Source of the DNA: Geobacter metallireducens GS-15
GTDB taxonomy: Bacteria > Desulfobacterota > Desulfuromonadia > Geobacterales > Geobacteraceae
DNA: 32,000 bases
Assembly (NCBI RefSeq): GCF_000012925.1
Contig: NC_007517.1
Location: forward strand, 300,001-332,000
Direction: 5' to 3'
Of this stretch, positions 2 through 31,944 are shown in pieces (positions within the stretch are counted from its first letter, which is position 1; the number at the start of each line of letters is the position of its first letter). The position numbers and the translations under genes were made by a program. The notes under the pieces are model-generated. The model had not been told where the DNA came from, made no database searches, and saw only the letters and a list, made by a program, of their open reading frames with translations.

Positions 2-904
2 CGCCTCGAAGCCCTGGCCGCCGGGATGCTCGGCACCGAGGCGGCCCTCTTCGTGACGAGCGGCACCCAGTCCAACCTCCTTGCCATCATGACCCACTGC
101 GGGCGGGGTGACGAGTACATCGCCGGCCAGACGGCCCACTGCTACCGTTTCGAGGGGGGCGGCGCCGCGGTCCTCGGCGGGGTCCAGCCCCAGCCCGTGG
201 ACGTGGAACCCGACGGAACCCTTGACCTCGTGAAAGTGGCCGCGGCCATCAAGCCCAACGATCCCCACTTTGCCCGGACACGGCTCCTCTGTCTGGAGAA
301 CACCCAGGCGGGGAGGGTTCTCCCCCTCGATTACCTGGCTCGCGCCCGTACCCTTGCCCGGGAGCGTGGCCTCGCCCTCCACCTGGACGGGGCGCGGCTC
401 TTCAATGCCGCCGTGGCCCTCGACGTGGAAGCCCGGGAGATAACGGATCATTTCGAATCGGTGTCGGTCTGTCTCTCCAAGGGGCTCGGCGCGCCGGTGG
501 GGTCGCTTTTGTGCGGGAGTCGGGGGTTTGTGGCCGAGGCCCGACGCTGGCGCAAGGTCCTCGGCGGCGGCATGCGCCAGGCAGGTGTCCTGGCCGCCGC
601 GGGAATTGTGGCCCTCACGGAGAACGTGGCGCGCCTCGCCGAGGACCACGCCAATGCGCGGCGTCTGGCCGAGGGGCTGGCTGCCGTCGGCGGTCTCGAT
701 GGTGACTCCGTCTCGGTTCAGACGAACATGGTGTTCCTCTCGCTTCCCCCTGATCATGCCGAGGCACTGGCAACCTTTCTCTGCGACAGGGGAGTTCTCA
801 TCTCCGGTCGGGAGCGCATCCGCCTTGTCACCCATCGGGATGTGACCTCTGCCGACATCGATCGGGTAGTGGGAGCCTGCGGGGAGTTTTTCAGGCGACC
901 CTGA
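2..904 (+). CDS. ltaE: Low-specificity L-threonine aldolase, 5'-truncated by the window edge
   Basis: The frame is open from base 2, so the ATG at 26 is internal. The protein 'GTEAALFVTSGTQSNLLAIMTHC...YRFEGGGAAVLGG...LENT...HLDGARLFNA...SVCLSKGLGAPVGS' matches the PLP-dependent threonine aldolase (beta-eliminating lyase) family pattern. Stop TGA at 902-904. Confidence 0.85.
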   Translation, partial: RLEALAAGMLGTEAALFVTSGTQSNLLAIMTHCGRGDEYIAGQTAHCYRFEGGGAAVLGGVQPQPVDVEPDGTLDLVKVAAAIKPNDPHFARTRLLCLENTQAGRVLPLDYLARARTLARERGLALHLDGARLFNAAVALDVEAREITDHFESVSVCLSKGLGAPVGSLLCGSRGFVAEARRWRKVLGGGMRQAGVLAAAGIVALTENVARLAEDHANARRLAEGLAAVGGLDGDSVSVQTNMVFLSLPPDHAEALATFLCDRGVLISGRERIRLVTHRDVTSADIDRVVGACGEFFRRP

Positions 905-991
905 CGCCTCATTCCTTCCATTGCAAAAGCTGCCTCCTATGGTTTACTTGAACGTGTCGCCTCCCCGAAAAACGCCTTCTGGAGTCAGATC

Positions 992-1654
992 ATGCCCATG
1001 AAAATTTTTGTGTGGATGCTTGCCGTTGTTGCGGGGATTCTCGCCTCGTGTGCCTTCATTACCGTCAACGTCTATTTCCCCGAGAAGGAGGTCAAGAAGG
1101 CCTTCAAGACCTTGGACGAGAAATACCTGGGGAAGGAGGGGGGGGAGGCGCCCGTCCCGGAACAGCCCCCGGCCGGTGCTGAACCGGCGCCGGCAGAGAA
1201 GCCCCAGAGCCGGTTCGAGGGAGCGCGATGGCCCCTCGCGGTGACAGCCACCGCCTGGGCTGCCGAGGATGCGGCCGGCGGCCTGGTGGTTGAGCTTTCG
1301 CGGATGCCCGAGGTGGTCAAGGCCTACGAGGAGATGAGAGGACGGCTCACGACCCTCGATCAGTTGCGTGACGGCGGCATTGTGGGAGAAACCAACCAGG
1401 GACTTGTCACGGTCCGCGACCCCTCCCGGATTGCCGGCCTGAAGGGAGCGGTGGACGAGGAGAACGCCAACCGCAAGACCGTCATTACCGGCATGGCTCG
1501 GGCAATCCTGAAGCAGGCGGGGAAGCCCGACACACCGGCCAATATGGGACAGGTTCTCGGCAAGGCGGCCGCCACCTATGCCCAGACGAAACAGGAAACC
1601 GCCCGGCCAGGCTGGTGGATCCAGTTGCAAAACGGAAAGTGGGTACAGAAATGA
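992..1654 (+). CDS. DUF1318/YdbL-like periplasmic protein
   Basis: GGAG lies 7 nt upstream of the ATG at 992. The N-terminus is hydrophobic ('MKIFVWMLAVVAGILASCAF'). The C-terminal half, 'GIVGETNQGLVTVRD...VDEENANRKTVITGMARAI...GWWIQLQNGKWVQK', resembles the YdbL/DUF1318 signature as I recall it. Confidence 0.65.
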   Translation: MPMKIFVWMLAVVAGILASCAFITVNVYFPEKEVKKAFKTLDEKYLGKEGGEAPVPEQPPAGAEPAPAEKPQSRFEGARWPLAVTATAWAAEDAAGGLVVELSRMPEVVKAYEEMRGRLTTLDQLRDGGIVGETNQGLVTVRDPSRIAGLKGAVDEENANRKTVITGMARAILKQAGKPDTPANMGQVLGKAAATYAQTKQETARPGWWIQLQNGKWVQK

Positions 1655-1962
1655 GCCGATTCGTTCTAATTATCCCGTTCGGAGCCCTCTCCCTCATGCT
1701 CGCTGCGTGCTCTTCCTTTCCCTGGTTGACGAAGGAAGAACCGGCCGCCACTTCCGCCCCTACTGCCAAGAACCGCTGTCTCCTCGAATCCGAGGATTGC
1801 CCTCCGCGGAAGATGACCATCACTGAACTGATCGCTGGTCTGAAGCATGAAATTGCCAGGGGTGAGGCCGTGTACACCCCGGCCGAACTCCAGAAGCTCG
1901 AAAACAAGCTCCGGGATTACGAAGTGATGTACGACCGCCTGATGTACGGCAACGACGATTGA
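1651..1962 (+). CDS. Small lipoprotein, function unknown
   Basis: Its ATG at 1651 overlaps the upstream TGA (ATGA, 1651-1654), indicating translational coupling. The signal peptide 'MSRFVLIIPFGALSLMLAAC' carries an L-A-A-C lipobox. Confidence 0.6.
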   Translation: MSRFVLIIPFGALSLMLAACSSFPWLTKEEPAATSAPTAKNRCLLESEDCPPRKMTITELIAGLKHEIARGEAVYTPAELQKLENKLRDYEVMYDRLMYGNDD

Positions 1963-2319
1963 AACGAAATGGTTAGTGTAACGATTCCGATGCGTTGGTT
2001 GCATTGATGTGAGTTTTTGAGCATTAATTAATAATAAGTTATTGACTTTTAATGTAGCACCATTTACTCTTGCGGCGCAAAACGCAGGAGGCGACGATAC
2101 CTGATTCCGCAAGACAGGCGGACCCCCTTCGATTCCCTTTTGAATCGCCCCAGGACATATTCTCCCCCATCCTGCAACACATCACAACTAAAGCGTGGAA
2201 AACAGTGCTGACAGAGCGCGGCGTGGCGTTTACGGCGTGCCGACCCGACTCCGTGCTGTCCGGCGTCCTGGCAATCGCGTCGGGACGGATTGCTCCGTTT
2301 TTCCCATGAGGGTTATTTC

Positions 2320-3000
2320 ATGCATCTGACTGACTGTTTCACGGAACTGGTGGCCTATGTCACCCACTTCCTCCGCACGGCCGCGGTGCGCCAGCCCTCC
2401 TACCAGGAGGTCCGCCGCGAAATCGACCTCCTCCTGGCCTCGGGGGAGTCGTGCGTCAGGCGGGAGGGGTTCTCCCGCGACGACTTCGAGCTGGCCCGCT
2501 TCGCCGTCTGCGCCTGGATCGACGAGGCGGTCCTCTCGTCGGCCTGGAGCGAGAAGAGCCTCTGGCTCCGGGAGCAGCTCCAGCGCCTCCACTACAACAC
2601 CACCGAGGCGGGTGAGGAGTTCTTCACCAGGCTGAACGCCCTGGGGCTCCACCAGCGTGAGGTGCGGGAGGTCTACTACCTCTGTCTCGCCCTCGGCTTC
2701 ACCGGCAGGTTCTGCAAGCCGGGGGACGAGTATCAGCTGGAGCAGGTGAAGACCGCCCAGCTGAAGCTCCTCGTGGGGAGCTCCGTGGGGCTTCCGTCCC
2801 TGGAGCGGACCGAGCTCTTCCCGGAGGCCTATCCGGCGGGAGCGCCCGCCATGGCTCCGGCCCGGCGCCGGGTCGGTTTCTCCCCCCTTGCCGCCGTCTG
2901 CCTCGCCGGTCCGGCGGTGTTCTTTGTCATTCTCTTCTTCGTCTACCGCTTCACCCTTTCGGGGGTGGGGGAGAATTTTTTAAGGACGGTGCCGTACTGA
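2320..3000 (+). CDS. tssL: T6SS membrane-complex protein TssL (DotU/ImpK family)
   Basis: GAGGG lies 7 nt before the ATG at 2320; the ORF track begins at an upstream TTG (2290). 'FELARFAVCAWIDEAVL...REVREVYYLCLALGFTGRF' is a DotU-like core, followed by one C-terminal TM helix ('LAAVCLAGPAVFFVILFFVY'). The gene sits directly upstream of tssM. Confidence 0.85.
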   Translation: MHLTDCFTELVAYVTHFLRTAAVRQPSYQEVRREIDLLLASGESCVRREGFSRDDFELARFAVCAWIDEAVLSSAWSEKSLWLREQLQRLHYNTTEAGEEFFTRLNALGLHQREVREVYYLCLALGFTGRFCKPGDEYQLEQVKTAQLKLLVGSSVGLPSLERTELFPEAYPAGAPAMAPARRRVGFSPLAAVCLAGPAVFFVILFFVYRFTLSGVGENFLRTVPY

Positions 3001-3001
3001 G

Positions 3002-6000
3002 ATGAAAACGAAGCTCGTGACCTTTCTCAAGTGGTTTCTCGTGGCGGGAGGGGCGGCAGTGGTCGTCCTTCTCGTTTTTGGTATTGTGCTCGCCCTCGAC
3101 TGGCCCTGGTGGGTGGCCCTCTGCATCCTCCTCCTTCTGGCGGGGATCGGGGTCGGCATTGTGCTGCTGCGGGCCATGTGGCTGCGCAAGCGGGAGCAGA
3201 ATTTCGTCCAGGAGGTGATCGCCCGGGACAAGGGGCTCCTGAAGGCCCTTTCCGGCAAGGAGCGGGAGCACCTTACCCAGCTCCAGGAGCAGTGGAAGGA
3301 TGCCATCGGCACCCTGAAGAATTCCCATCTCAAGAAGCAGGGAAACCCCCTTTACGTCCTCCCCTGGTACCTGGTGATCGGCGAGAGCGGCTCCGGGAAG
3401 ACCACCTCCCTCAACAGCGCCCGCCTGTCATCCCCTTTCATCGACGTCTGCCGGGCCTCCGGCGTTTCCGGCACCCGCAACTGCGACTGGTGGTTCTTCG
3501 AGGAATCCATCGTCATCGACACGGCCGGTCGCTACGCGGTTCCCATCGACAGCGAGAAGGACCGGGACGAGTGGCAGAAGTTCCTGTCGCTCCTCGTCAA
3601 GTACCGGAAGAAAGAGCCCCTGAACGGCCTCATCGTCACCGTGGCGGCAGACCGGCTCCTGGCGGCGGGGCGCGAGGAGAACGCGGAGGAGGGGCGCACC
3701 ATGCGGAGCCGCATCGACGAGTTGATGCGGGCCCTGGGGGTGCGGTTCCCGATCTATGTCCTCGTCACCAAGTGCGATCTGGTTGAGGGGATGAACCGCT
3801 TTGCCGGGCTTCTGCCGGAAAAGGCCCTCCGGCAGCCCATGGGGATGGTGAACCAGGAACTGGCCACGGACGTGGTCACCTTCACCGACAAGGCGGTTGC
3901 CGCCGTGGTGGAACGGCTCCGGACCCTCCGGCTGCTGCTTCTCCACCAGCCCGAGGCCCGGGAAGCGGATCCGGGGCTCGTCCTCTTTCCCGAGGAGTTC
4001 GCGGTCCTGCGGGATGCCCTCGCCGCCTTCATGGAGGGGGCCTTCCGGGAAAACCCCTACCAGGAGACCCCGGTCATGCGGGGGCTCTTCTTCTCCAGCG
4101 GCCGCCAGGAGGGGAATCCCCATTCCCGCTTCTCCGAGGCCTTGGGCCTCTCGGGGGAAATGGCGGCGCTCCCCGGCACCAGCAAGGGTCTCTTTCTCCA
4201 CGACTTTTTCGCCAGGATTCTCCCCGCCGACCGGGCGCTCCTGGCGCCGACCCGCCGTGCCGTGGAGTGGCGGGCCCTCACCGGGAACCTGGGGCTCGTC
4301 TCCTGGATGCTCCTGGGCGTGGCCCTCTGTGGTCTCCTTTCCTTTTCCTTCGTGAAGAACATGACCACCATCCGCCAGGTCTCCCATCAGTTCGAGCGGA
4401 CTCCGCGGCTGGCCGGCAACCCCACCAGCGATCTCCTAGTGCTCGACGCCTTCCGCCAGGGAATCCTGAAGGTGGAGGAGCGGAACCGCTCCTGGTGGAT
4501 TCCCCGTTTTGGCCTCACGGAGAGCGTCAAGGTGGAGCGGACCCTCAAGGAGAGGTTCTGCCGCCAGTTCCGGGACGGTTTCCTGACCCCCTACGACCGG
4601 CAGCTGGCCACCGGTGTCGCGGGCCTTTCCGCTGGCACCCCCGACGAGCTCTTCGCCCAGTACGCCATCCATCTGACCCGGCGGATCAATATCCTCAACG
4701 CCGGCATGAACGGTAAAAAGCTGCCGGAACTGAGCGCCATGCCCCAGCCGGCTTCGGTCTCCTTCCTGGCCGGCGAAACCGCCGCCGGTGCTGATGCCCG
4801 CAAGCGGTTCGGCACCCTCTACCTCCACTACCTGGCCTGGCGGGCAGATTCCCCCGATCTTGCCAAGGAGACGGCCCAGCTTCAGGGGTGGCTCCGCCAG
4901 ATCATAGGCCTCAAGGGGGGAAGCCTTTCCTGGCTTGCCCCGTGGATCGACCGGCAGTCGGGGCTTCCGTCGGTGACCATGGCCGAATTCTGGGGAGGGG
5001 GCGCGCCGCTCCCGGGAGAGGCAGCGGTTCCCCCCTCCTTTACCCGCAAGGGGAAGGGGGAGATGGACAGCCTCGTGGCCGAGCTGGAGACGGCCCTCGG
5101 CGACCCGCGCCTCGTGGCGGCGGGCAAGGGCGGCCTTGGCTCCTGGTACCGGGGGAGTTGCCTGGCGGCGTGGCAACGGCTTGCCGCGGCGTTCCCCACG
5201 GGAAAGGAGCGGCTCCGCACTGTCCGCGACTGGCAGCAGACGGCCGCCAGAATGGCCACAGACCAGGGGCCCTATTTCGCCTTCATCAACCGGATGTCCG
5301 CCGAGCTCGATACCCTCGTGGGCAAGGAGGGGGTACCTCCCTTTGTGGTCCAGCTCTATGCCTTTCAGGTGGCCCGGGCGGGGGGTGCGGTTCCGGGCGC
5401 CGTGGGGAAGGCCGCCGAGAGCGGCAAGCGTCTCATCAACTCCCTCGGCGAGAGGATTCATCCCGATGCCGCCGTGGCCAAGGGGATCGAAACGCCCCTG
5501 GCGGCCCCGAAGGCCTGGCAGGAGTACCAGACGGCCCTGGCGGCCATCGCGCCGGCGGCATCGTCGCGGCAGCAGGCCTTCCAATTGGCCACTCAGACCT
5601 TCGGCGACGACCCGGCCACCGGCAAGACCCCCTTTATGGCCGCCTGGGGCGCAGCCGGCCGCCTTCGGGCCGGAGTTGCCGGCGCCGGAGCCGACGAAGC
5701 CTTCTGGCGGCTCGTGACCGGCCCCCTCGACTACCTCTGGACCTACGTCCGGCATGAGGCCGGCTGCCAGCTCCAGACCCTCTGGGAGGAGCAGGTGATC
5801 GCCGCCACCCTCGGGATGCCCCCCCAGCAGGCGGGCCCCCTGCTCCTTGGCCCCGACGGCCTTGCCTGGCGCTTCGTCAAGGGGCCCGCAGCTCCCTTCA
5901 TCCGGGGGACCGCCGCCGGCTACGCGCCCCGGCAGGCCCTCGGGGTGGCACTCCCCATCGAGGGGGCCCTCTTCGCCTTCCTCTCCAAGGGTGCCCAGAT

Positions 6001-6466
6001 TCAGGCCTCGGCTGGGGGGCGCCAGCCCAACTACACCGTGGCCGTCAAGGGGCTTCCCACCGACGCCAACGCCGATGCCCGGATCAGGCCCCACGCCACC
6101 CGGCTGGAGCTCCAGTGCGCTGGCACCCCCCAGACCCTCGTGAACCAGAACTTCCCCGTAGGGAAGACCTTCTACTGGTCCCCCGAAACCTGCGGCGACG
6201 TCATCTTTCAGATCGAGGTGGGTGACCAGGTTCTCACCAAACGTTACGGCGGTCCCCAGGCCTTCCCCGACTTCCTCCGGGAGTTTGCCGGCGGTTCGCG
6301 CACTTTCCCGGCCCGGGAGTTCCCCGGCGAGAAGGAGGCCCTTGAGCGGATGGGGATCAAGCATATCCGCGTCAACTACCAGATCATGGGGGGAGGGCAG
6401 GTGGTCAAACAGGGGAGCGCCATGGCCGGCGCCACGGCCCCCCGGGTCATCGCCCGGTGCTGGTAA
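3002..6466 (+). CDS. tssM: T6SS membrane-complex protein TssM (IcmF/ImpL family)
   Basis: 1154 aa with N-terminal TM helices and a Walker A motif 'GESGSGKTT'. A further TM segment lies near aa 430-450, followed by a large periplasmic C-terminal region. Its start is 1 nt after the tssL stop. Confidence 0.9.
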   Translation: MKTKLVTFLKWFLVAGGAAVVVLLVFGIVLALDWPWWVALCILLLLAGIGVGIVLLRAMWLRKREQNFVQEVIARDKGLLKALSGKEREHLTQLQEQWKDAIGTLKNSHLKKQGNPLYVLPWYLVIGESGSGKTTSLNSARLSSPFIDVCRASGVSGTRNCDWWFFEESIVIDTAGRYAVPIDSEKDRDEWQKFLSLLVKYRKKEPLNGLIVTVAADRLLAAGREENAEEGRTMRSRIDELMRALGVRFPIYVLVTKCDLVEGMNRFAGLLPEKALRQPMGMVNQELATDVVTFTDKAVAAVVERLRTLRLLLLHQPEAREADPGLVLFPEEFAVLRDALAAFMEGAFRENPYQETPVMRGLFFSSGRQEGNPHSRFSEALGLSGEMAALPGTSKGLFLHDFFARILPADRALLAPTRRAVEWRALTGNLGLVSWMLLGVALCGLLSFSFVKNMTTIRQVSHQFERTPRLAGNPTSDLLVLDAFRQGILKVEERNRSWWIPRFGLTESVKVERTLKERFCRQFRDGFLTPYDRQLATGVAGLSAGTPDELFAQYAIHLTRRINILNAGMNGKKLPELSAMPQPASVSFLAGETAAGADARKRFGTLYLHYLAWRADSPDLAKETAQLQGWLRQIIGLKGGSLSWLAPWIDRQSGLPSVTMAEFWGGGAPLPGEAAVPPSFTRKGKGEMDSLVAELETALGDPRLVAAGKGGLGSWYRGSCLAAWQRLAAAFPTGKERLRTVRDWQQTAARMATDQGPYFAFINRMSAELDTLVGKEGVPPFVVQLYAFQVARAGGAVPGAVGKAAESGKRLINSLGERIHPDAAVAKGIETPLAAPKAWQEYQTALAAIAPAASSRQQAFQLATQTFGDDPATGKTPFMAAWGAAGRLRAGVAGAGADEAFWRLVTGPLDYLWTYVRHEAGCQLQTLWEEQVIAATLGMPPQQAGPLLLGPDGLAWRFVKGPAAPFIRGTAAGYAPRQALGVALPIEGALFAFLSKGAQIQASAGGRQPNYTVAVKGLPTDANADARIRPHATRLELQCAGTPQTLVNQNFPVGKTFYWSPETCGDVIFQIEVGDQVLTKRYGGPQAFPDFLREFAGGSRTFPAREFPGEKEALERMGIKHIRVNYQIMGGGQVVKQGSAMAGATAPRVIARCW

Positions 6467-6507
6467 CGGCAGCCCCCCAATCTCACGGATGAGAAGGAGT
6501 GCGACTG

Positions 6508-8880
6508 ATGCTCGGCACTGACATGACAACCGGCTGGAACTGGTCAGCCTTCGGCAAGCACCCGGCGGCGGCCGATTACTTCCGCCTCGGCCATGCTTCC
6601 CCCTTCGTGGAGGGCCTCACGAAATGGGTGGAGAGCGGCTACCGGCTCCTGGCGGAGCGAAGCGACGCCCCGCCCGCGTTCTGCTCCTGGCGCTTCTGGG
6701 CCCGGGGCTATGGCCGGGACCCACTGGTCCTGGGAGTGGTGCGGGTCTCCAGCGACAGCCTCGGCCGCCCCTATCCCCTCCTTATCATGGGGAGCGGTCC
6801 CCTGGAGGGGTGGGAGGGGCAATGGGACCTCCTCCCCTTTGCCGCGGAGAAGAGTTGGTGCCAGATCGAATTCCTGGCCACCCATACCTTCGGCGACCTC
6901 AGGAAGTTGGAAGAGGGGCTCCAGGGGCTGCGTCCCCCTGCCGCCGAGTGGGACGAGCTGGCCGAACGCCGCGGGGGGCTGAATCGCCTCGGCTCCCCCC
7001 TGGACCCCTACGCCTCGTTCCTGGACATTCCCCGGCTGGAAAAGGTAGCCGCCGAACGGGCCGGGCGGGACGAGTTCTCGGTGCGGCTCGACCGTGGGCC
7101 GGTCAACGACAAGATCACCCTGGTGAGCCTCTGGCACCTGCTGGCCAAGGGGGCGGCGAAGGGAGTCCCCAATGCCCTCTTCATGGGGGGAACCCTGGAG
7201 CGCTCCTTTCTCGCCTCCTACCGGCGGGCCCTGGCTCCGGGGGATTTTCTCCACCTCTGGTCCGCCTCGGATGCCGCGGGGTGGCCCAACAGCATCGGAA
7301 CGGAGTACGCCATGGATATAGCAACCCTGGGAAAAGAGCCTGTTCGCCCCGACCAGCCGGTGGGTGACGACGTCCGCTACGATCCCCTCTTCGACACTCT
7401 CCAGGCCGAGGTGGACAAACTAACCTCCCCGGCCATCGCCGGCAACATCGACTGGGAGAAGGTGGTGCGGCTATCAGCCGACATCCTGGCCACCCGCTCC
7501 AAGGACCTCCTGGTGGCCAGCTACCTGGCCGTGGGGCTCGTCCAGACCCGCGGCGGCGACGGCCTGGCCCTGGGGCTCAAGGTCTGGCGCGATCTCCTGG
7601 AGCGGTTCTGGAACGACCTCTACCCCACCCGGATGCGGGGACGTCAGCGGAGCGTGGAGTGGTGGCTGGACCGGACCGAGATCGCCCTGCGCCAGCAGGG
7701 GGAGCAGACCCTGCCGGGGGAACAGCACGTCATCGTGCTGGAGACCCTCGGCGCCATCGACCGCTTCCTGCGCGAGCGCCTGGAGAATGCCCCGTCCCTC
7801 ACCAAATTGCGGGAGCTGGTAGTGGATATGGCGCCGGAAGTGAACGTGGAGGCGGTTGCCGAAGCCGCGGCCCCACCGCCGGTTCAGGCCGAGGCGCCGG
7901 CCGATCTCTTTACCCCCCCGAGCCAGGTCGCTGTCCGCCCCGTGGAGGTCCCCCGGCAGACAAGCATCCCAGGCTCACCCCTTCAGGCCCTCGAAGCGGG
8001 GTTGCGGCAAGTGGGGGAGGCTGCCGGAGCCCTGCTCCAGCAGGACCCCTCAAGTCCGGTACCTTACCGTCTTTCACGGCTCGCCGCCTGGGGTCAAGTT
8101 ACGGAGCTTCCGCCGGCTGTGAACGGCCGCACCCGCATCCCCCCTCCCGAGCGCCAGGTGTTGACTCTCCTCCAGGAGCTGGCCAGCCACGGCGACGGCG
8201 AAGCGCTCCTCAAGGCCGCCGAAGCGCGGCTTCCCCAGTTCATCTTCTGGCTTGACCTGAACCGATTTACCGCCGAAGCCCTTTCCCGCCTTGGCGACCG
8301 TTTCTCCTCTGCCCGCGAGGCGGTCTGCGCCGAGACGGCGGCCCTTGCGGGGCGGCTTCCGGGCCTTGAGGGGCTCTCCTTTGCCGACGGCACTCCCTTC
8401 GCCGATGGGGAGACCCGCCAGTGGCTCGCGGGGGTCATGCAGCGGGAGTCATCCGCCGCCCAATGCCCCGCCGAAGCCGATACCGAAGGCCGGGCCGAGG
8501 CCATCGCCCAAGAGGTTGATGAGGCCCAGGCCCTCATCCGGAGCGGCAAGCTCCTGGAGGCGGTGGAGCGGTTCCAGGGGCACCTGGGCAACGGTGCCTC
8601 CCGCAAGGAAAAACTCCACTGGCGCCTCGCCCTGGCCCAGCTCCTCGTGAACACCAACCGGGCGAAGTTGGCGCTCCCCCACCTGGAGCAGGTCGTGGCC
8701 GACATTGGGGCCTTCGGCCTCGAAGAGTACGACCCGGCCCTGGCCCTGCGGGGGCTGAAGCTCGCCTGGATCGGCTTCGATTCCCAGGCCGAACCCCGCT
8801 TCAAGGAGAAGGCCGCCGAGGCCCTCCACCGCATCGCCCGCCTCGACCCGGTGGAGATGGTGCGGCTGGCCAAGGGGTAA
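6508..8880 (+). CDS. Single ORF joining TagF (DUF2094/ImpM-like) to TssA (ImpA_N domain protein)
   Basis: AAGGAG (6494-6499) precedes the ATG at 6508. The N-terminal ~265 aa ('WSAFGKHPAAADYFRLG...PYPLLIMG') look TagF-like. From aa ~270, 'VGDDVRYDPLFDTLQAEVDKL...DWEKVVRLSADILATRSKDLLVASYLAVGLV' is the ImpA N-terminal signature of TssA. There is no stop codon between the two parts. An internal GGAG plus ATG at 7312 could also give a stand-alone TssA. Confidence 0.75.
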   Translation: MLGTDMTTGWNWSAFGKHPAAADYFRLGHASPFVEGLTKWVESGYRLLAERSDAPPAFCSWRFWARGYGRDPLVLGVVRVSSDSLGRPYPLLIMGSGPLEGWEGQWDLLPFAAEKSWCQIEFLATHTFGDLRKLEEGLQGLRPPAAEWDELAERRGGLNRLGSPLDPYASFLDIPRLEKVAAERAGRDEFSVRLDRGPVNDKITLVSLWHLLAKGAAKGVPNALFMGGTLERSFLASYRRALAPGDFLHLWSASDAAGWPNSIGTEYAMDIATLGKEPVRPDQPVGDDVRYDPLFDTLQAEVDKLTSPAIAGNIDWEKVVRLSADILATRSKDLLVASYLAVGLVQTRGGDGLALGLKVWRDLLERFWNDLYPTRMRGRQRSVEWWLDRTEIALRQQGEQTLPGEQHVIVLETLGAIDRFLRERLENAPSLTKLRELVVDMAPEVNVEAVAEAAAPPPVQAEAPADLFTPPSQVAVRPVEVPRQTSIPGSPLQALEAGLRQVGEAAGALLQQDPSSPVPYRLSRLAAWGQVTELPPAVNGRTRIPPPERQVLTLLQELASHGDGEALLKAAEARLPQFIFWLDLNRFTAEALSRLGDRFSSAREAVCAETAALAGRLPGLEGLSFADGTPFADGETRQWLAGVMQRESSAAQCPAEADTEGRAEAIAQEVDEAQALIRSGKLLEAVERFQGHLGNGASRKEKLHWRLALAQLLVNTNRAKLALPHLEQVVADIGAFGLEEYDPALALRGLKLAWIGFDSQAEPRFKEKAAEALHRIARLDPVEMVRLAKG

Positions 8881-8901: not shown

Positions 8902-9546
8902 GTGAAATGTATCTGGCTGGTAGGGTTAACTATCATTCTTTTGCCATTTCTTGCCGGGCCTTGCGATGCTTTCCGTAAAGCTGAGGGGAGTATTCCGATA
9001 TGCAAAGGTCCCGGTTGTGAGACTGTTGCGGTCGAGACCCCCTGGCCGGAAGCGCCATCGTCGGATGAAAGCATTACGGTTCTGTTCGGGGGGGGCTCAT
9101 TTCGGGTGCCATCCGATGTGGCTTCTGTGGGGATAGGAGACAACCTGAGCGTCTTCAGGTTCAAGAGCGGGGAGCCTTTGCTGCTCAGCAGAGAAACATT
9201 CAGTGCCCTCAAACTTCCCAAACGCGGACTGTCGGTAATTGAGGCAGCCAACGTTCTCTTTACCAAAACGCCTAAAGATCCAGAGCCTTCCGGAAAGGAT
9301 GATCGCAAGAGCTGGCGACTAATGCTGTCGATGAAACGGGGATTCTTCTCCACAAATCCACGGCTGGCTGTGTACCGCAAGGGTCCGGTCACGATCTACC
9401 AGATAACGGAAGGTCCAGGCCCTTACCGAAATGTGGCGTTAGTTGCTAATGCGCATTCCCGAAATTTCCTTATGCGTCTGGAGAGCAATTGTGAAGACAA
9501 GAAGTTCATCGAAGTCTTGTCCACTATTTCCGCAAAGGAGAAATGA
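8902..9546 (+). CDS. Secreted hypothetical protein, visibly lower GC than its flanks
   Basis: GTG start at 8902, preceded by GGAGGA (8890-8895). N-terminal signal-like segment 'MKCIWLVGLTIILLPFLAGPC'. I recognise no family. Confidence 0.55.
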   Translation: MKCIWLVGLTIILLPFLAGPCDAFRKAEGSIPICKGPGCETVAVETPWPEAPSSDESITVLFGGGSFRVPSDVASVGIGDNLSVFRFKSGEPLLLSRETFSALKLPKRGLSVIEAANVLFTKTPKDPEPSGKDDRKSWRLMLSMKRGFFSTNPRLAVYRKGPVTIYQITEGPGPYRNVALVANAHSRNFLMRLESNCEDKKFIEVLSTISAKEK

Positions 9547-9872
9547 CGTTCATGGCATTGGCCGATACAGAAAAACATGATCTGAGGGTTATTGTGGAAG
9601 GCTTCTGGGGAAAGCATGAGACTGCCAGTTGGGAAATGAACGAAGAGCTTGTTGCCGTACTACCAAAGATGATTTCGGAAGTTAAAAGCTGTTCGCAAGC
9701 CATGGACTTCGTTCCTCGTCCGGGCGTTTACCTCAACCCCAAAGATGTTCAGCGTGAATTACGCAAGATGGCACGGAGAGTCAAAGAGAAGGGGACTTCC
9801 TACTGGGTGTGCATGCTCATGGGTGCAACCAACTGGAAGACTGAAGCTGCCAGGGTTGCTCAAGGTCTTTGA
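9543..9872 (+). CDS. Hypothetical 109-aa cytoplasmic protein
   Basis: Its ATG overlaps the upstream stop (ATGA at 9543-9546). It has no signal peptide and no recognisable motif, and shares the lower-GC composition of the upstream gene. Confidence 0.5.
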   Translation: MTFMALADTEKHDLRVIVEGFWGKHETASWEMNEELVAVLPKMISEVKSCSQAMDFVPRPGVYLNPKDVQRELRKMARRVKEKGTSYWVCMLMGATNWKTEAARVAQGL

Positions 9873-9956: not shown

Positions 9957-10445
9957 ATGTCGAAAGAAGCATCCGTAGCACCGAAGGAACGGGTCAATAT
10001 CGTCTACCGTCCGGCCTCGGACGGCGCTGCCGAAGAGGTTGAGCTGCCGCTGAAAATGCTCGTTATGGGGGACTTTACCGGCACCCCCGACGAACGCCCC
10101 GTCGAGAAGCGGGACCCCGTCGCCATCGACAAGGAGACCTTCAACGACGTCATGAAGGCCCAGGGGATCTCCCTGAACATCGCCGTCCCCAACCGGCTCG
10201 CCGGCGAGGCCGGGGACGAGCTGCCGGTGAACCTGAAGGTTGAGTCACTCAAGGACTTCGGCCCCGAGGCGGTGGTGGAGCAGGTCCCCGAGATGAAGCG
10301 GCTCCTGGAGCTGCGGGAGGCCCTGCGGGCCCTCAAGGGGCCGCTTTCCAACGTTCCCGACTTCCGGAGGAAGATCCAGGAACTGATCACCGACGACGCG
10401 GCCCGGGCCAAGCTTCTGGCTGAAATCGGCATCGAGGAAGGGTAA
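9957..10445 (+). CDS. tssB: T6SS contractile sheath small subunit TssB (VipA/ImpB)
   Basis: AAGGAG precedes the start. 'APKERVNIVYRPASDGAAEEVELPLKMLVMGDFTG' is the canonical TssB N-terminus. 162 aa, immediately upstream of tssC. Confidence 0.93.
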   Translation: MSKEASVAPKERVNIVYRPASDGAAEEVELPLKMLVMGDFTGTPDERPVEKRDPVAIDKETFNDVMKAQGISLNIAVPNRLAGEAGDELPVNLKVESLKDFGPEAVVEQVPEMKRLLELREALRALKGPLSNVPDFRRKIQELITDDAARAKLLAEIGIEEG

Positions 10446-10457
10446 GGAGGAGCAACC

Positions 10458-11936
10458 ATGAGCGTAGAACAGCAAAACACCGCAGCAGTCGAGAGCCGGA
10501 TAGAAGGATCGCTTCTGGAGGAGATTGTCCAGGCCACGAAGCTCCAGCCCGCCGACGAGGCCTACTCCATCACCAAGAAGGGGGTCGAGGCCCTTATCAC
10601 CCAACTTCTGGAGCCGGGGACCGAGACCCCGAAGGTCTCCAAGGCGGTCCTCGACGACATGATCGCCGAGATCGACAAGAAGCTTTCCCGGCAGATGGAC
10701 GAGATCCTCCACAATACCCAGTTCCAGAAGCTGGAATCCTCCTGGCGTTCCCTCCACTTCCTGGTGGACCGGACCGACTTCCGGGAGAACAACCGGATCG
10801 AGATCATGAACGCCACCAAGGATGAGCTCCTGGACGACTTCGAGGATGCTCCCGAGGTGGCCAAGTCGGGGCTCTACAAGACCGTCTATTCCGCCGAGTA
10901 CGGCCAGTTCGGCGGCAAACCCTACGGCGCCATTATCGGCAACTACGACTTCGGCCCCGGCCCCCAGGACATCAAGCTTCTCCAGAGCCTGGCCGCCGTG
11001 TCCGGCATGGCCCACGCCCCCTTCATCGCCGCCGCTTCCCCCCAGTTCTTCGGCTGCGACGACTACACGGCGCTGCCGAACCTCAAAGACATCAAGTCGA
11101 TCCTCGAAGGCCCCCAGTACGCCAAGTGGCAGTCGTTCCGGGAGAGCGAGGACGCCCGCTACGTGGGGCTGGCCCTGCCCCGGTTCCTCCTGCGGCTCCC
11201 CTACGGCGAGGCCACCAAGCCGGTGAAGAGCTTCAACTACGAGGAGAGCGTCTCCGCCGGCCACGACCGCTACTGCTGGGGGAACGCCGCCTTCTCCTTT
11301 GCCACGCGGCTTACCGAGAGCTTCGCCAACTTCCGCTGGTGCGCCAACATCATCGGCCCCCAGGGAGGCGGCGCGGTGCATGATCTACCCCTCCACCAGT
11401 ACGAGGCCATGGGGGCCATCCAGACCAAGATTCCCACGGAAGTGCTCGTCAGCGAGCGGCGCGAATTCGAACTGGCCGAGGAAGGGTTCATCGCCCTCAC
11501 CATGAGAAAGGGGAGCGACAACGCCGCCTTCTTCTCCGCCAACTCCGTGCAGAAGCCGAAATACTTCGGCACCAGCAAGGAGGGGAAAGAGGCCGAGCTC
11601 AACTACAAGCTGGGGCTCCAGCTCCCCTACATGTTCATCGTGAGCCGCCTCGCCCACTACCTGAAAGTCATCCAGCGGGAGCACATCGGCACCTGGAAGG
11701 AGCGGGGCGACCTGGAAAACGAGCTGAACCTCTGGATCCGCCAGTATGTCTCCGAGATGGACAACCCCATGCCCGGCGTGCGGAGCAGAAGGCCCCTGCG
11801 CCAGGCCCAGGTCACCGTAGAGGAAGTCCCCGGCGAGCCCGGCTGGTACCGGGTCGGCCTTAAGGTTACCCCCCACTTCAAGTACATGGGGGCTTATTTT
11901 ACCCTCTCTTTGGTTGGAAAGCTGGATAAAGAATAA
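10458..11936 (+). CDS. tssC: T6SS contractile sheath large subunit TssC (VipB/ImpC)
   Basis: 492 aa. Segments such as 'FQKLESSWRSLHFLV', 'YGQFGGKPYGAIIGNYDF' and 'LALPRFLLRLPYG' are typical of TssC. Confidence 0.93.
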   Translation: MSVEQQNTAAVESRIEGSLLEEIVQATKLQPADEAYSITKKGVEALITQLLEPGTETPKVSKAVLDDMIAEIDKKLSRQMDEILHNTQFQKLESSWRSLHFLVDRTDFRENNRIEIMNATKDELLDDFEDAPEVAKSGLYKTVYSAEYGQFGGKPYGAIIGNYDFGPGPQDIKLLQSLAAVSGMAHAPFIAAASPQFFGCDDYTALPNLKDIKSILEGPQYAKWQSFRESEDARYVGLALPRFLLRLPYGEATKPVKSFNYEESVSAGHDRYCWGNAAFSFATRLTESFANFRWCANIIGPQGGGAVHDLPLHQYEAMGAIQTKIPTEVLVSERREFELAEEGFIALTMRKGSDNAAFFSANSVQKPKYFGTSKEGKEAELNYKLGLQLPYMFIVSRLAHYLKVIQREHIGTWKERGDLENELNLWIRQYVSEMDNPMPGVRSRRPLRQAQVTVEEVPGEPGWYRVGLKVTPHFKYMGAYFTLSLVGKLDKE

Positions 11937-12032: not shown

Positions 12033-12518
12033 ATGGCAATGCCCGCACACCTCACCCTCACCGGTGAAAAACAGGGGAAGATTGACGGTTCCTGTGAACT
12101 GCAGGGACGTGAAAAAACCATCCTCGTCTACTCCATGAATCACGACATCCACATGCCGAAGGATCCCCACTCGGGGCTTCCCACCGGCAAGCGGGTTCAC
12201 GGCCCCCTGAGCATCGTAAAGGAGTTCGACGCCAGCTCCCCCAAGATGTACCAGGCCCTCTGCACTGGTGAGCACCTAAAGGACGTCACCCTCAAGTTCT
12301 ACCGCATCACCAAGCAGGGGACCGAGGAGCACTACTACACCATCAAGCTCGAAGACGCCATCGTGGTCAGCATGAAGCCCTACATGCCGGTAACACTCCT
12401 GGAGGAGAACAATCCCTACCGCCACATGGAAGAAGTGGCCTTCACCTACCGCAAGATCAAGTGGACCTGGGAGCCCAACGGCATCGAAGCCGAGGATTCC
12501 TGGAGCGTGCCCAAGTAG
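12033..12518 (+). CDS. hcp: T6SS inner tube protein Hcp (TssD)
   Basis: 161 aa. 'GEKQGKIDGSCELQGREKTILVYSMNHDIHMPKDPHSGLPTGKRVHGPLSIVKEFDASSPKMYQAL' is a classic Hcp1-family sequence. Confidence 0.93.
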   Translation: MAMPAHLTLTGEKQGKIDGSCELQGREKTILVYSMNHDIHMPKDPHSGLPTGKRVHGPLSIVKEFDASSPKMYQALCTGEHLKDVTLKFYRITKQGTEEHYYTIKLEDAIVVSMKPYMPVTLLEENNPYRHMEEVAFTYRKIKWTWEPNGIEAEDSWSVPK

Positions 12519-13986: not shown

Positions 13987-15339
13987 CCTTAACAGGCCGT
14001 TGAAAAACTCCTTCATTTCCAGGGCAATCCCCTTCAAGGAGATCATTTTAGGCCGATAGTTGCATTGATCTCGCCCTATTCGTTCTTTGAAACTTTGCTT
14101 TTTACCTTGATTTGGCCTTTTCGGGCGGGCTTTGCCACCAAGAGTCGCATTATTCCCCTGATTATGCCGTTTTCGTCCCGAGATTGCGCAGCCGGACCAG
14201 ATTGTATGCCGCAATGGCCATGGTGAAGTACCAGTCGACTTTCGCTATTCCCCGATGCCGGGTCTTGCGGAGATTGCCGACAGTCTTGAGCCAGCCGAAG
14301 GCCTCTTCGATCCGCTTGCGAATCCTCAGGCTGGTTTTGTAGCCTTCGTGGCGGGTAGTCCTGCCATCGATGGCTGAGCGGCGGTTAGCGGTGTTCTGAG
14401 CAATGTGAGGGGTTACCTTGAGTGCTCGCAGATCTTTGACGCACTCTTTGGTGTCGTAGCCCTTGTCGCCGCCCATGGTGATCCGCTTGTTACCGGCGAC
14501 GTCTGCGATCATCTCGACTGCGGTATCCCGCTCAGCGGTACCGGTTGCGTGGGTGATTCTGGCATCGACGATGATCCCGTTGCGGTTCTCCATGAGAGCG
14601 TGCCCGTGGTAACTGAGCTTCGCCTCTTTGCCCGAGCTTCTCCTGGCAATCCGCGCATCCGGATCGGTGGTGGAGGCATGGGTGTCGTTTTTGAGCTTTT
14701 CGCCGTGGAAATCACGCTCCGTGTTACGACCCACTGGAGGCTTTGGTCCATCCTTGGGCCGAAAGCTCTTGATAGAAGCCCACGCCTCGATGAGGGTGCC
14801 GTCAACGCTGAAGTGCTCGTCGGACAACAGCTTTGCCCTTCGGGCCTGCTCAACTACTTTTGCCAAGAGCAGCCGTGCCACGTCGGTATCGATCAACCGC
14901 TCCAGGTTGGTGGAAAACGAGGAGTGGTCCCAGACCTTCTCGTCCAGGGCCAATCCCACAAACCAGCGGAACAGGATGCTGTAGCTGATCTGCTCCACCA
15001 GCAGACGGTTACTCCTGATGGTGTACAGCGCCTGAAGCAGAAGTGCTTTAAGCAACTGCTCAGGAGGAATCGAGGGCCGGCCGGTGTGGGAGTACATGGC
15101 CTCGAATTGCGGGCTGAGCTCTGCAAGGGCCTTATCCACCATCGCCCTGATCGACCGCAAGGGGTGGTCCTTCGGGACGTACGACTCAGGGGAGAGATAA
15201 CAGAACAGAGCTTCGGTTTTTGTCTCGGCGCCGCGCATAACTTTTCTCCTGTAAATTCAGATTGTTACGCGTAAAAATATAGCACAGTTCGCTAACTTAT
15301 TGAATCAAAAAGGTTTAGTTTTTCAACAACCTGTTAAAG
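13987..15339 (-). mobile_element. IS5-family insertion sequence, about 1.35 kb
   Basis: The terminal inverted repeats match at 20 of 23 positions. The left repeat is 'ccttaacaggccgttgaaaaact' (13987-14009). The right repeat is 'agtttttcaacaacctgttaaag' (15317-15339). They enclose a single transposase ORF. The TTAA at 13989-13992 and 15334-15337 could instead be a 4-bp target duplication; TTAA is palindromic, so the two readings cannot be separated here. Confidence 0.8.
14162..15238 (-). CDS. IS5-family DDE transposase
   Basis: 358 aa. The N-terminus 'LFCYLSPESYVPKDHPLRSIRAMVD...GRPSIPPEQLLKALLLQALYTIRSNRLLVEQISYSILFRWFVGL' matches the InsH-type N-terminal domain. The C-terminus contains 'GDKGYD' and 'IEEAFGWLKTVGNLRKTRHRGIAKV', typical of DDE_Tnp_1/IS5 transposases. 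Confidence 0.9.
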   Translation of the reverse strand: MRGAETKTEALFCYLSPESYVPKDHPLRSIRAMVDKALAELSPQFEAMYSHTGRPSIPPEQLLKALLLQALYTIRSNRLLVEQISYSILFRWFVGLALDEKVWDHSSFSTNLERLIDTDVARLLLAKVVEQARRAKLLSDEHFSVDGTLIEAWASIKSFRPKDGPKPPVGRNTERDFHGEKLKNDTHASTTDPDARIARRSSGKEAKLSYHGHALMENRNGIIVDARITHATGTAERDTAVEMIADVAGNKRITMGGDKGYDTKECVKDLRALKVTPHIAQNTANRRSAIDGRTTRHEGYKTSLRIRKRIEEAFGWLKTVGNLRKTRHRGIAKVDWYFTMAIAAYNLVRLRNLGTKTA

Positions 15340-25863: not shown

Positions 25864-26002
25864 GTGTCCAAAATCCTGGGTCGGAACCACAACCGGGATA
25901 AAAGGAGATCATGCGCCAGAAAAGAAAAATTCCCAGTACCGATCGATTGAGCGAAAGCAGAACGAGAACATTTTTTGAGATCAGGGGATGAAAGGAGTCA
26001 AA

Positions 26003-30004: not shown

Positions 30005-31471
30005 TCAGAACCGGACCTGCACGCCGTAGGGGTCCTTGATCTCCACCTTCGGGTCAAACGTCAGCTTCTTCTCGCCCCGTTGATCCAGGTACTTGTTCAG
30101 CTCCAGGTTGACGGTGAGCGGCACATCGACGCCGGCCTTGGCCAGGGCCTGACGGAGCAGGGCCTCGGCCTTGGTGGCGAAGGCGGTGGCGTCCCCCAGC
30201 ACCCGCATGGCCTCGGTGGGGTTGTGGAAGCCGACGGAGTTTTCGGCGCCGATGAAGACGCAGCGGTAGAAGGCTTCCTCATAGAGATCTTTCGCCCGGT
30301 CGTAGAGGGCCTTGTCGATCTGTTTTCCCTGGGCCTGGGCGGCATGGGCCTTCTCGAAGAGTTTGGCCACGGTTGCGGTGGCGTAGCCGGAGCGGAGCAT
30401 GAGGGAGACGGTCCGGTCCTGGATGGCGATGACCTGATCCCGGAGCCATTCGGGTTTTTCGGTGTGGCATTGGATGCAGGCCTTCATGTCATTCTTCAGG
30501 GGACTCATGACCCGGTGGTCCGATACCTTGAAGGCGCCGACCCGGGTGTAGGGCATATGACAGTCGGTGCAGGCCGCCCCGGCCTTCCAGTGGACGCTGT
30601 TGTTGGAGAAGAGCTCATACTCGGGGTGGCGGATGAATCCCAGCTTGAAGCCGGTGACTGTCTGCGTCCACTCCCCCACGCTGGCATCGCTGCGGATCTG
30701 CTTGATGATGTTCTCGACGGAGATGTTGCCCATCTTGCTTCCCTGCCAGGGGAAGTAGACTCCGATCGACTTCTTGTCGGCGTCCTTGGGAATATTGTAG
30801 GTGACGTGGCACTGGGCGCAGACGAGGCTCCGCATCTCCTGGCGGGACAGCTTCGCCTGGTCGACCCCCAGCTTCTTCAGGGCCTCTCCGAGGGTGAAGC
30901 CTCGGGAAATCCTGAGACTCATGTCCTTGTTGTCGTGGCAGTCGATGCAGGCCACCCCGAGGGTCTTATGCTTTTCGGGAATCTTGGCGAGGACATCCTT
31001 GAAGGGGGTCTTGAAGTAGTCGATCCCCATCTCCTTTTCGAGTTTGGGCGCGTAGGGGGTCTTGCAGGTGAGGCAGACGCCCCCCGACTTGAGGCGGGCC
31101 GAGTCGATCTCCAACTGGTCTCGCACCATGTTGGCGTGGCCCCGGGGCTCGTTGTAGGCGATGCCGAACCCCCAGCCGTTGAAGAGGAGTGCCATGTAGG
31201 GGAACTCGGAGAGCTTGTCGTAGGTGACGTGGTCGGCGTCGAAGCCCCGCTTGTACTTGCTCTTGCCAGGAGGCTCCGGCTCCTCGGTCTTTTTCCACAT
31301 TTCGTATTCGGTCGGATAGGCCTTGCCCCAGACGGCCGGGTCGACTTCGCCATCGGGGATCTGGACCGTCTTTACCGGCTGGGCTTTCTCCGGGGCGCAT
31401 CCCCCGAGGACAAACAGGGTTGCCGCGGCAGCCAGCGCGATCAGGGGTGCAACAGGATTCAGTCGTCTCAT
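30005..31471 (-). CDS. nrfA: Pentaheme cytochrome c nitrite reductase (ammonia-forming) NrfA
   Basis: GGAGGC RBS before the ATG at 31471; the track ORF extends further upstream through non-coding-like sequence. The signal/lipobox is 'MRRLNPVAPLIALAAAATLFVLGGC'. Heme motifs are 'CLTCK' (the NrfA-specific CxxCK), CIDCH, CAQCH, CTDCH and CIQCH. Confidence 0.92.
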   Translation of the reverse strand: MRRLNPVAPLIALAAAATLFVLGGCAPEKAQPVKTVQIPDGEVDPAVWGKAYPTEYEMWKKTEEPEPPGKSKYKRGFDADHVTYDKLSEFPYMALLFNGWGFGIAYNEPRGHANMVRDQLEIDSARLKSGGVCLTCKTPYAPKLEKEMGIDYFKTPFKDVLAKIPEKHKTLGVACIDCHDNKDMSLRISRGFTLGEALKKLGVDQAKLSRQEMRSLVCAQCHVTYNIPKDADKKSIGVYFPWQGSKMGNISVENIIKQIRSDASVGEWTQTVTGFKLGFIRHPEYELFSNNSVHWKAGAACTDCHMPYTRVGAFKVSDHRVMSPLKNDMKACIQCHTEKPEWLRDQVIAIQDRTVSLMLRSGYATATVAKLFEKAHAAQAQGKQIDKALYDRAKDLYEEAFYRCVFIGAENSVGFHNPTEAMRVLGDATAFATKAEALLRQALAKAGVDVPLTVNLELNKYLDQRGEKKLTFDPKVEIKDPYGVQVRF

Positions 31472-31482
31472 TGTTGAGCCTC

Positions 31483-31944
31483 CTATAAGGTTTCCATGGC
31501 CCCGCTCCGCGTGTGGGAGACGCGGCGGTGGCATTTCCAGCATTGGCGTTCGGTATCGATGTGGGTCACGGTGGTGTCGTGGCAGCGGACGCAGTTCTTC
31601 TGGAGAACCTCTTCTCCGTGCTTCGAGAGCCTGATGATCTCCGGCACGTGTCCCGAATAGAAGAAGATGGCGTCCTTCGCGCCGTCGATGGATTTCCAGA
31701 TATAGTGGACCGCGAGGTTCTCGTTGGGGAGGTGGCAGTCGACGCACTTGACCCGCCGGTGGGCACCGGTGTGGATCCATGCCTCGTATTCATTTTCCAT
31801 GGGGTGGCACCCGACGCAGAAGTCGGGGGTGTCCGATTTGGCCAGCAGCTTCGGCGGCCCGAAAAGCACGAAGAGCGCCACCGCTGCTACGATTACGCCG
31901 ATCGCCAGGTAGATGGCCTGGTTTCCGGTCCCGGGCAATCCCAT
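31483..31944 (-). CDS. nrfH: Tetraheme membrane quinol dehydrogenase NrfH (NapC/NirT family)
   Basis: GGAGG lies 8 nt before the ATG at 31944. There is an N-terminal TM helix 'AIYLAIGVIVAAVALFVLF' and four CxxCH motifs (CVGCH, CVDCH, CVRCH, CWKCH). The gene ends 11 nt upstream of nrfA. Confidence 0.9.
   Translation of the reverse strand: MGLPGTGNQAIYLAIGVIVAAVALFVLFGPPKLLAKSDTPDFCVGCHPMENEYEAWIHTGAHRRVKCVDCHLPNENLAVHYIWKSIDGAKDAIFFYSGHVPEIIRLSKHGEEVLQKNCVRCHDTTVTHIDTERQCWKCHRRVSHTRSGAMETL

Follow-up and report, generated by a model that had tools for sequence, protein, structure and literature searches.

A conserved TagF–TssA fusion gene with a probable internal translation start in the type VI secretion locus of Geobacter metallireducens

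We analysed a 32,000-nucleotide stretch of the Geobacter metallireducens GS-15 genome (hereafter the window; contig NC_007517.1, positions 300,001–332,000 of the forward strand, with all coordinates below given as window positions unless a relative's locus is named), which carries genes of a type VI secretion system (T6SS), and found that the regulator TagF and the structural assembly protein TssA are encoded there as one genuine, conserved gene. This tagF–tssA fusion gene, Gmet_0275, occupies 6508..8880 on the + strand and comprises 790 codons plus a stop, for a predicted product of 86.7 kDa in which TagF is covalently joined to the N-terminal (Nt1) end of a complete TssA. The fusion had been proposed from an earlier reading of the same DNA (the original prediction), on the ground that one continuous frame without a stop runs through both modules, and our results confirm it. 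They further suggest that the start codon of the ancestral tssA gene has been retained inside the fused frame and probably still directs synthesis of TssA on its own.

The + strand is open from 6499/6508 to 8880 without any stop codon, and ATG 6508 is the likely start of the fusion gene. A Shine-Dalgarno (SD) sequence, AAGGAG (6494..6499, +), lies 8 nt before this ATG with a predicted anti-SD duplex energy of −8.3 kcal/mol, compared to only −3.3 and −1.7 kcal/mol for the neighbouring candidate starts. GTG 6499 was considered and rejected as a start, since it sits within the SD and both gene callers and alignment favour ATG 6508. Gene order and products of the window match the published table of G. 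metallireducens T6SS genes, in which Gmet_0273 is tssL, Gmet_0274 is tssM, Gmet_0275 is listed as 'tssA', and Gmet_0278–0280 are tssB, tssC and hcp.

The N-terminal part of the protein is TagF-like, as had been proposed: hidden Markov model (HMM), profile and predicted structure agree on a TagF fold spanning residues 8–252 (6529..7263, +). NCBIfam TIGR03373 (TagF) matched with 46.5 bits against a cut-off of 41.2, and Pfam TagF_N (PF09867) matched residues 14–130 (6547–6897, +) with 39.6 bits against a cut-off of 27. A single-sequence phmmer search of the TagF half against PDB sequences gave no match, and a profile built from 25 TagF modules was needed; its best PDB match was the crystal structure of Acinetobacter baylyi TagF (9T0N, E = 8e-6), and it also matched the Pseudomonas aeruginosa TagF structures 2QNU (E = 0.005) and 6IZ8. 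In an AlphaFold monomer model of the whole fusion protein (mean predicted local distance difference test score, pLDDT, 85), the module forms a confident alpha/beta domain at residues 8–258, with pLDDT ~90 over residues 8–250. Foldseek matched this domain to 9T0N (E = 2.5e-7) and to 6IZ8 and 2QNU (target-normalised TM ~0.6, probability 1.0), and comparison of the model with the crystal structures reveals the two-lobed TagF fold.

The residues on which TagF activity depends are also in place. In P. aeruginosa and Agrobacterium tumefaciens TagF, mutations of G8K9, W32 and S79/D81/R85 (plus P88) abolish both Fha binding and repression (PMC5995506); these residues map to G16K17, W40 and S81/D83/R87/P90 of the window protein, all within the predicted fold, so that both the GK and the S-x-D-x3-R-x2-P loops are present. 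Across the 111 clusters of homologous fusion proteins described below, G16, K17, D83, R87 and P90 are invariant (111/111) and S81 is kept in 107, while W40 was assigned by reading the window sequence only. The TagF module thus looks functional, and we predict that it is a repressor. Among the fused proteins, mean pairwise identity is 0.63 in the TagF part versus 0.62 and 0.59 in the TssA domains; on this comparison the fusion is conserved and under purifying selection. Within the module, residues 60–64 (SWRFW; 6685–6699) show the strongest codon-identity excess of the gene, with an observed-to-expected ratio of 2.07 and Ser60 encoded by TCC in 21 of 25 dereplicated orthologues.

Residues 269–790 constitute a full-length long-class TssA, beginning with ImpA_N from residue ~270 as had been claimed. 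NCBIfam TIGR03362 matched with 457 bits against a cut-off of 230, and its alignment covers model positions 2–476 of 476 over residues 272–754, beginning three residues past Met269. ImpA_N (Nt1, PF06812) was matched at residues 277–386 (7336..7665, +) with 100.5 bits and a fold match to 6HS5, and the T6SS_VasJ region (PF16989; Nt2 plus the C-terminal oligomerisation domain) at residues 496–750 (7993..8757, +) with 242 bits. The HMM searches that the original prediction had proposed as a check thus matched both halves, TIGR03373 the N-terminal and PF06812 the C-terminal. Foldseek comparisons of the C-terminal part agree, matching the TssA fragments of Aeromonas hydrophila and enteroaggregative Escherichia coli (EAEC; 6G7C, E = 3e-9; 6G7B, TM 0.90; 4YO3, TM 0.83). 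The C-terminal domain of TssA mediates its oligomerisation, and the protein acts at the place where subunits are added to tube and sheath.

Between the two modules lies a 16-residue junction, residues 253–268 (7264..7311, +). Because stand-alone TagFs terminate just past a DFxxLWS motif (W251–S252 in the window protein), this segment comprises the former TagF tail together with former intergenic bases. It is unusually conserved, with an identity of 0.57 versus a mean pairwise 0.18 for the disordered linker within TssA (residues 446–488; 7843..7971, +; pLDDT <50).

We then examined how widely the fused architecture is distributed. A search over 5.8 billion proteins, clustered at 90% identity, returned 111 clusters with the same three Pfam domains, 782–809 residues in length and ranging from 100% down to 44% identity. 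In a scan of one genome per GTDB species (80 loci), with half-specific HMMs mapped onto stop-to-stop open reading frames (ORFs), a single ORF contained both halves in the window and 36 other genomes (Geobacter, Pelotalea, Desulfuromonadales, Geobacteraceae, Smithella/Smithellaceae/Syntrophaceae); tagF and tssA were adjacent but separate in 23 loci (Syntrophaceae, Desulfobacterales, other Thermodesulfobacteriota), and tssA lacked a detectable upstream tagF in 21. This is the fused-or-split comparison that had been called for, and its outcome is that all relatives with at least 45% identity are fused and only more distant ones are split. That more distant relatives do have two genes might suggest that two separate genes are the real state here as well, and that the continuous frame reflects either a recent pseudogenising mutation or an artefact of sequencing or assembly. 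This explanation, which we regard as having next to no chance of being correct, is already refuted by contig records, by the ORFs of relatives and by conservation. The identical protein is recorded on 39 contigs, the 111 clusters and 36 other species genomes share the same single ORF, and the TagF part is conserved as well as the TssA parts; because the protein recurs on those contigs and orthologues down to 44% identity have the single-ORF architecture, assembly error and frameshift are excluded.

The phylogeny of TssA places this architecture in a single lineage. A neighbour-joining tree built from the TssA parts included 36 fused genes (35 from the other genomes and that of the window), and all of them fall in one 38-leaf clade, whose sister clade consists of split tagF|tssA loci. 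The two non-fused members of the 38-leaf clade have lost TagF secondarily: in L061 (Geomonas limicola, 607–5563) tssM is followed directly by tssA, and in L048 (uncultured Geobacter, 3237–5632) tssA follows an unrelated 248-residue ORF and keeps an ACGGAG-N5-ATG start region. In two split loci, L033 and L035, tagF and tssA share a frame and are separated by a lone TAA that abuts the tssA ATG. The codon two before Met269 in the fused clade encodes Tyr in 63 cases, Phe in 36 and His in 8, and TAY is one substitution away from TAA or TAG. Because the fused genes form one clade and their sisters are split, some by one in-frame stop, the tree shows that the fusion had a single origin, in the ancestor shared by the T6SS clusters of Geobacteraceae/Desulfuromonadales and of Smithella-type Syntrophales. 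The simplest account of its origin is loss of the tagF stop codon in an adjacent in-frame tagF–tssA pair, through a presumed stop-to-tyrosine step. The split loci of distant relatives thus document where the fusion came from and do not refute it.

The fused lineage is a small part of the TagF family. Among the 150 best representatives of the TagF half (one per 50%-identity cluster), two are fusions, both of the fused clade described above, and the remainder are ~150–340 residues long, mostly 230–270; since only these two are fused, the fusion constitutes a narrow clade within a larger family of stand-alone TagFs. No independent TagF–TssA fusion from another TagF clade was found among these 150 representatives, in a search that was not exhaustive. 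Two proteins with TagF and ImpA_N only (P0117 and P0118) were considered as a third architecture and rejected, one coming from a deletion variant (L089) and the other from a fragmented, error-ridden locus (L090). In L089 (4001–7119), a truncated 540-residue TagF–ImpA_N protein lies directly before tssC, the C-terminal half of TssA and tssB having been deleted, so that the T6SS there is probably defunct; L090 carries the same locus in heavily fragmented form.

The junction also appears to preserve the initiation region of the ancestral tssA. Stand-alone TssAs start at the position of Met269, whose codon, ATG 7312 (7312..7314, +), is the former tssA start codon and probably still initiates, inside the longer frame, a 57.1-kDa isoform made up of TssA alone. 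It is preceded by a conserved nucleotide block, GGAACGGAG (codons G264–T265–E266; 7297..7305, +), which contains an SD-like GGAG at 7302–7305, separated from the ATG by 6 nt and thus within the 5–9 nt range of an SD spacer. ATG was found at the Met269 position in all 37 fused loci of the first scan, preceded by a near-invariant ATY GGA ACG GAG TAY KCC. Of the 111 clusters, 104 have Met as residue 269, while three have Leu, three Val and one Lys.

Codon usage around this site is constrained beyond what the protein alone would appear to require. Among 25 dereplicated genes (<85% identity, GC 48–71%), Thr265 is encoded by ACG in 22 of 23, although ACG makes up 28% of Thr codons in these genes, and Gly264 by GGA in 21 of 25 versus 23% overall. 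These two columns rank 2nd (T265) and 3rd (G264) for excess codon identity among 200 conserved four- or six-fold degenerate columns, and the 5-codon window from residue 264 ranks 2nd of 789, with an observed-to-expected ratio of 1.91 versus a median of 1.16. In L009 and L014, where Thr is replaced by Ala, the codons GGA GCA recreate a GGAG. RNAalifold predicted no base pairs on 15 diverse junctions, and conserved RNA secondary structure was accordingly rejected as the cause of junction conservation. Around ATG 7312 of the window, the folding energy over 42 bases is −4.5 kcal/mol, within the weakest 4.5% of positions in a gene whose median is −12.5, and the next eight codons have a third-position GC content (GC3) of 0.38 versus 0.85 gene-wide (the lowest 1.2% of windows); close Geobacter relatives show the same open, low-GC3 start region.

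We also examined the DNA of all seven genes lacking Met269. The Geobacter anodireducens lineage and a 79%-identical relative have TTG at this position with GGAACGGAG intact; TTG accounts for only 4 of ~102 Leu codons, and the putative TTG start has persisted despite 21% divergence of the protein. GTG occurs in one Smithella-type gene. In the remaining four the codon is GTC, GTT, CTG or AAA, and in 4/4 the GGAG/ACGGA motif is gone as well (ACA GAA, AGT GAA, ACT GAG, GCG CAG), giving an association between motif and start codon of p = 2.8e-4 (Fisher). These four losses are independent events, because each has a Met-bearing relative closer than any other exception. In L048, whose stand-alone tssA is nested within the fused clade, the equivalent sequence, cctACGGAGcattcATG, is the sole ribosome-binding site. 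Synonymous constraint and co-variation of SD and start codon thus both point, with the caveats set out below, to selection beyond the protein level, and these comparisons show that the old tssA initiation region (GGAG, six bases, ATG 7312) is evidently still selected as nucleotide sequence. The original prediction had offered internal initiation at this site as an alternative to the fusion; the site is present and comparative evidence favours its use, which would add to the fusion and is no rival to it. Because start codon, GGA ACG codons and GGAG are kept together and lost together, G. metallireducens probably makes a separate 57.1-kDa TssA besides the 86.7-kDa fusion.

Taken as a whole, the data are best explained, in our judgement by a slight lean towards yes, by a conserved single-origin fusion with a retained internal start, yielding two co-assembling products and a tethered TagF brake. 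The long TagF–TssA product would be initiated at ATG 6508 and the short TssA product at ATG 7312. Because both hold the C-terminal oligomerisation domain, mixed rings with fewer TagF than TssA subunits are expected, so that the priming and capping ring would bear sub-stoichiometric tethered TagF domains. A possible function for such domains is suggested by the Fha-less system of A. baylyi, whose TagF is reported to bind Hcp and disrupt Hcp hexamers, to block sheath–tube elongation until VgrG is loaded, to require its conserved N-terminal loops, and to be so scarce that it can act only when brought to the assembly site by the membrane protein TagZ (preprint 10.64898/2025.12.08.692957). In the fusion, the covalent tether to TssA might replace TagZ-type recruitment and solve the same problem of local concentration, placing a brake, or a checkpoint on spike loading, at the site of Hcp and sheath subunit addition. 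No FHA-domain protein, kinase or PP2C phosphatase was found among the window ORFs scanned, the neighbouring genes of relatives or the published G. metallireducens T6SS list, a survey that did not extend genome-wide. We favour a built-in brake or spike-loading checkpoint, with TagF as a presumed tethered negative regulator.

Several observations weigh against the two-product part of this reading and could instead be taken to mean that the 86.7-kDa TagF–TssA is the sole product, with IGTEYxM and GGA ACG GAG reflecting protein or codon-usage constraint or a decaying relic. The evidence for a short isoform is wholly comparative, and its statistics ignore phylogenetic non-independence, save for dereplication at 85% identity and the check that the losses are independent. 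The SD is only the 4-base GGAG, whose −6.1 kcal/mol falls in the 9th–29th percentile of in-frame positions (26th in the window); as such a value is unexceptional inside G-rich genes, we dropped SD strength as a stand-alone argument, although it nonetheless equals the energies of real tssA starts in split loci (median −5.0). The IGTEYxMD motif is conserved as protein too, with I263, G264, E266 and D270 as conserved as Met269, and part of the signal could therefore be protein-level constraint. The even stronger codon constraint at residues 60–64 involves no start codon, so such signals can arise away from start sites. Across the family the open-structure signal is weak, with a median at the 23rd percentile and 14 of 25 genes under the 25th, and the short isoform is not indispensable, because four lineages have lost the internal start and manage without it. 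However, a relic would not be expected to hold synonymous positions across lineages at only 45% protein identity, nor would motif and start codon be expected to disappear together. The replacements TTG and GTG are themselves start codons, TTG being rare and retained as described; the mRNA of the window is locally open and AT-rich past ATG 7312; and the same motif is a real ribosome-binding site in L048. We accordingly consider a fusion-only product possible but rather unlikely.

The brake proposed for the tethered TagF meets objections of its own, since the case for a checkpoint comes from a single preprint on a distant TagF, and since in P. aeruginosa and A. tumefaciens the conserved loops are those that bind Fha, whereas no fha was found in the window locus. 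TagF might instead serve as a docking adaptor that connects TssA with the NTPase region of TssM in the cytoplasm, or with some other part of the membrane complex or baseplate, and so helps to bring TssA to the membrane complex in a positive or structural role. TagF has been grouped with longin/DENN-like modules and associated with the IcmF/TssM NTPase. Wherever neighbouring genes were checked, fused and split loci alike have the order tssM–tagF–tssA, with tagF directly after tssM and stop and start codons often overlapping, and Serratia marcescens TagF is reported to act on membrane-complex assembly. Moreover, the whole T6SS including Gmet_0275 is strongly induced and active, which is a poor fit with a purely inhibitory subunit in every TssA. 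Yet the invariant loops are those needed for repression or arrest in three experimentally studied TagFs, and TagF was lost secondarily in L048 and L061 with tssA retained, a pattern that better fits an accessory regulator than a structural adaptor. Because the repression loops are conserved and two clade members have lost TagF, the docking role fits less well, and we regard it as improbable. Returning to the tethered brake, the fusion might also be read as a 'Rosetta stone' for TagF in general, implying that TagF acts at the point where TssA controls the start of Hcp-tube and sheath polymerisation; in the fused clade the brake would be built into the cap, rings would be mixed from two isoforms of a single mRNA, the TagF dose per ring would follow from the ratio between the two starts, and the checkpoint would need neither Fha and phosphorylation nor a TagZ-type recruiter. 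We put forward this wider extension only tentatively and think it rather doubtful.

Collectively, these results bear on how TagF can act outside the Fha/phosphorylation pathway, for which the Acinetobacter preprint, with TagF concentrated at the assembly site, is the sole mechanistic proposal. A conserved covalent TagF–TssA tether provides independent evolutionary support for the idea that TagF acts at the assembly site or at the TssA-controlled priming step. The fusion also offers a simple test system, as G. metallireducens is genetically tractable and its T6SS is active, with a published phenotype in which hcp deletion speeds adaptation to direct interspecies electron transfer. In addition, the annotation of Gmet_0275, GSU3167 and their relatives, listed only as 'TssA', is corrected, and the locus is probably a new case of two isoforms from one ORF in a structural gene of a secretion system.

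The surrounding locus is that of a T6SS island. Upstream of the fusion lie tssL (DotU; 2290..3000, +) and, immediately before it, tssM (IcmF-related; 3002..6466, +). In TssM only the IcmF-related N-terminal Pfam domain was matched at E <= 1e-3; because the usual IcmF-related and IcmF_C domains were not detected by Pfam at this threshold, its periplasmic part appears divergent. The published gene list places tssJ, K, E, F, G and H elsewhere, at a second locus beyond the window. Downstream, the fusion gene is followed by two small ORFs and then by tssB (9957–10445, +), tssC (10458–11936, +) and hcp (12033–12518, +). The two small ORFs (8902–9872) have ~51% GC versus ~67% in the flanking genes and encode proteins of 214 residues, with a signal-peptide-like N-terminus (MKCIWLVGLTIILLPFLAGP), and 109 residues, neither with a Pfam match. 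In several relatives (L083, L085–L088) tssB directly follows tssA, and in G. anodireducens (L082) the gap holds a PAAR-like/Tli4/lipase cassette. Because its contents vary between nothing, two low-GC ORFs and a cassette, the tssA–tssB gap looks like a hot spot for insertion of cargo genes.

Beyond hcp, an insertion sequence (IS)-type transposase (DUF772 + DDE_Tnp_1; 14162–15238, − strand) separates this gene from the effector and immunity genes. The 3 kb past it have 38–48% GC and encode an NTF2-like protein together with an M15 peptidase that bears a peptidoglycan-binding domain; the pair appears in the literature as tsi1/tse1. Further downstream are vgrG (17492) and genes for a PAAR-like protein, a Tli4-like protein, a PGAP1-type lipase and a DUF2169 protein; adjoining the last on its downstream side, a gene at 25988–28753 encodes a 921-residue protein with three Glucodextran_B/bacterial Ig-like repeats and a weak match to the T4 gp19 tail tube. 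A cytochrome c552 gene (NrfA-type nitrite reductase; 30005–31780, − strand; Pfam E = 4e-162) marks the end of the T6SS island.

As the original prediction had surmised, we found no description of a TagF–TssA fusion in open-access papers or bioRxiv. TagF mechanism papers, a TagF preprint on 655 sequences and a 2026 accessory-factor review mention only TagF–PppA or stand-alone TagF, and database entries already carry the three Pfam domains yet name the proteins just 'TssA' or 'VasJ'. The G. metallireducens T6SS paper likewise lists Gmet_0275 simply as 'tssA', with TagF nowhere mentioned, and reports a 91-fold rise in its transcripts under direct interspecies electron transfer; for Gmet_0275 and GSU3167, the literature searched yielded transcript data only.

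The precedent that had been named, the TagF–PppA fusion of A. tumefaciens (Atu4331), shares with Gmet_0275 an N-terminal TagF with GK and SDR loops, a short linker, a T6SS partner and a place in a T6SS gene cluster. Its partner, however, is a PP2C phosphatase that regulates the Fha/threonine-phosphorylation pathway, whereas here TagF is joined to a structural assembly protein; the window protein gave no Pfam or NCBIfam match to a PP2C domain and is not of the TagF–PppA type. A. baylyi TagF (ACIAD2683, PDB 9T0N) is the best PDB match of the module by both profile and fold and belongs to a T6SS without the Fha/phosphorylation pathway, but it is a free protein of 327 residues recruited non-covalently by TagZ, in contrast to the 252-residue module covalently joined to TssA. 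The split tagF|tssA pairs of Syntrophaceae, Desulfobacterales and Thermodesulfobacteriota metagenome-assembled genomes (for example L033, L035 and L039–L047), sister group of the fused clade, have the same tssM–tagF–tssA order and TagFs 31–47% identical to that of the window, and differ in that a stop codon ends their tagF. On the TssA side, residues 269–790 match the whole of TIGR03362, with ImpA_N, Nt2 and C-terminal domains, as in the long-class TssAs of Vibrio cholerae (VasJ), A. hydrophila and EAEC (6RIU, 6G7B/6G7C, 4YO3); unlike known TssAs, which begin at ImpA_N, the window protein carries a 268-residue N-terminal TagF extension.

In-frame internal initiation with co-assembling shortened isoforms occurs in ClpB 95/80, IF2 alpha/beta, CheA L/S and SctQ/SctQ-C of type III secretion systems. 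Gmet_0275 resembles these genes in having an in-frame start with its own SD inside a longer ORF and an oligomerisation part common to both predicted products, although the two proteins are demonstrated in those systems and deduced here from sequence. Taken singly, the two parts are an ordinary TagF and an ordinary long-class TssA in every sequence and fold feature that we tested, and what appears to be new is their combination.

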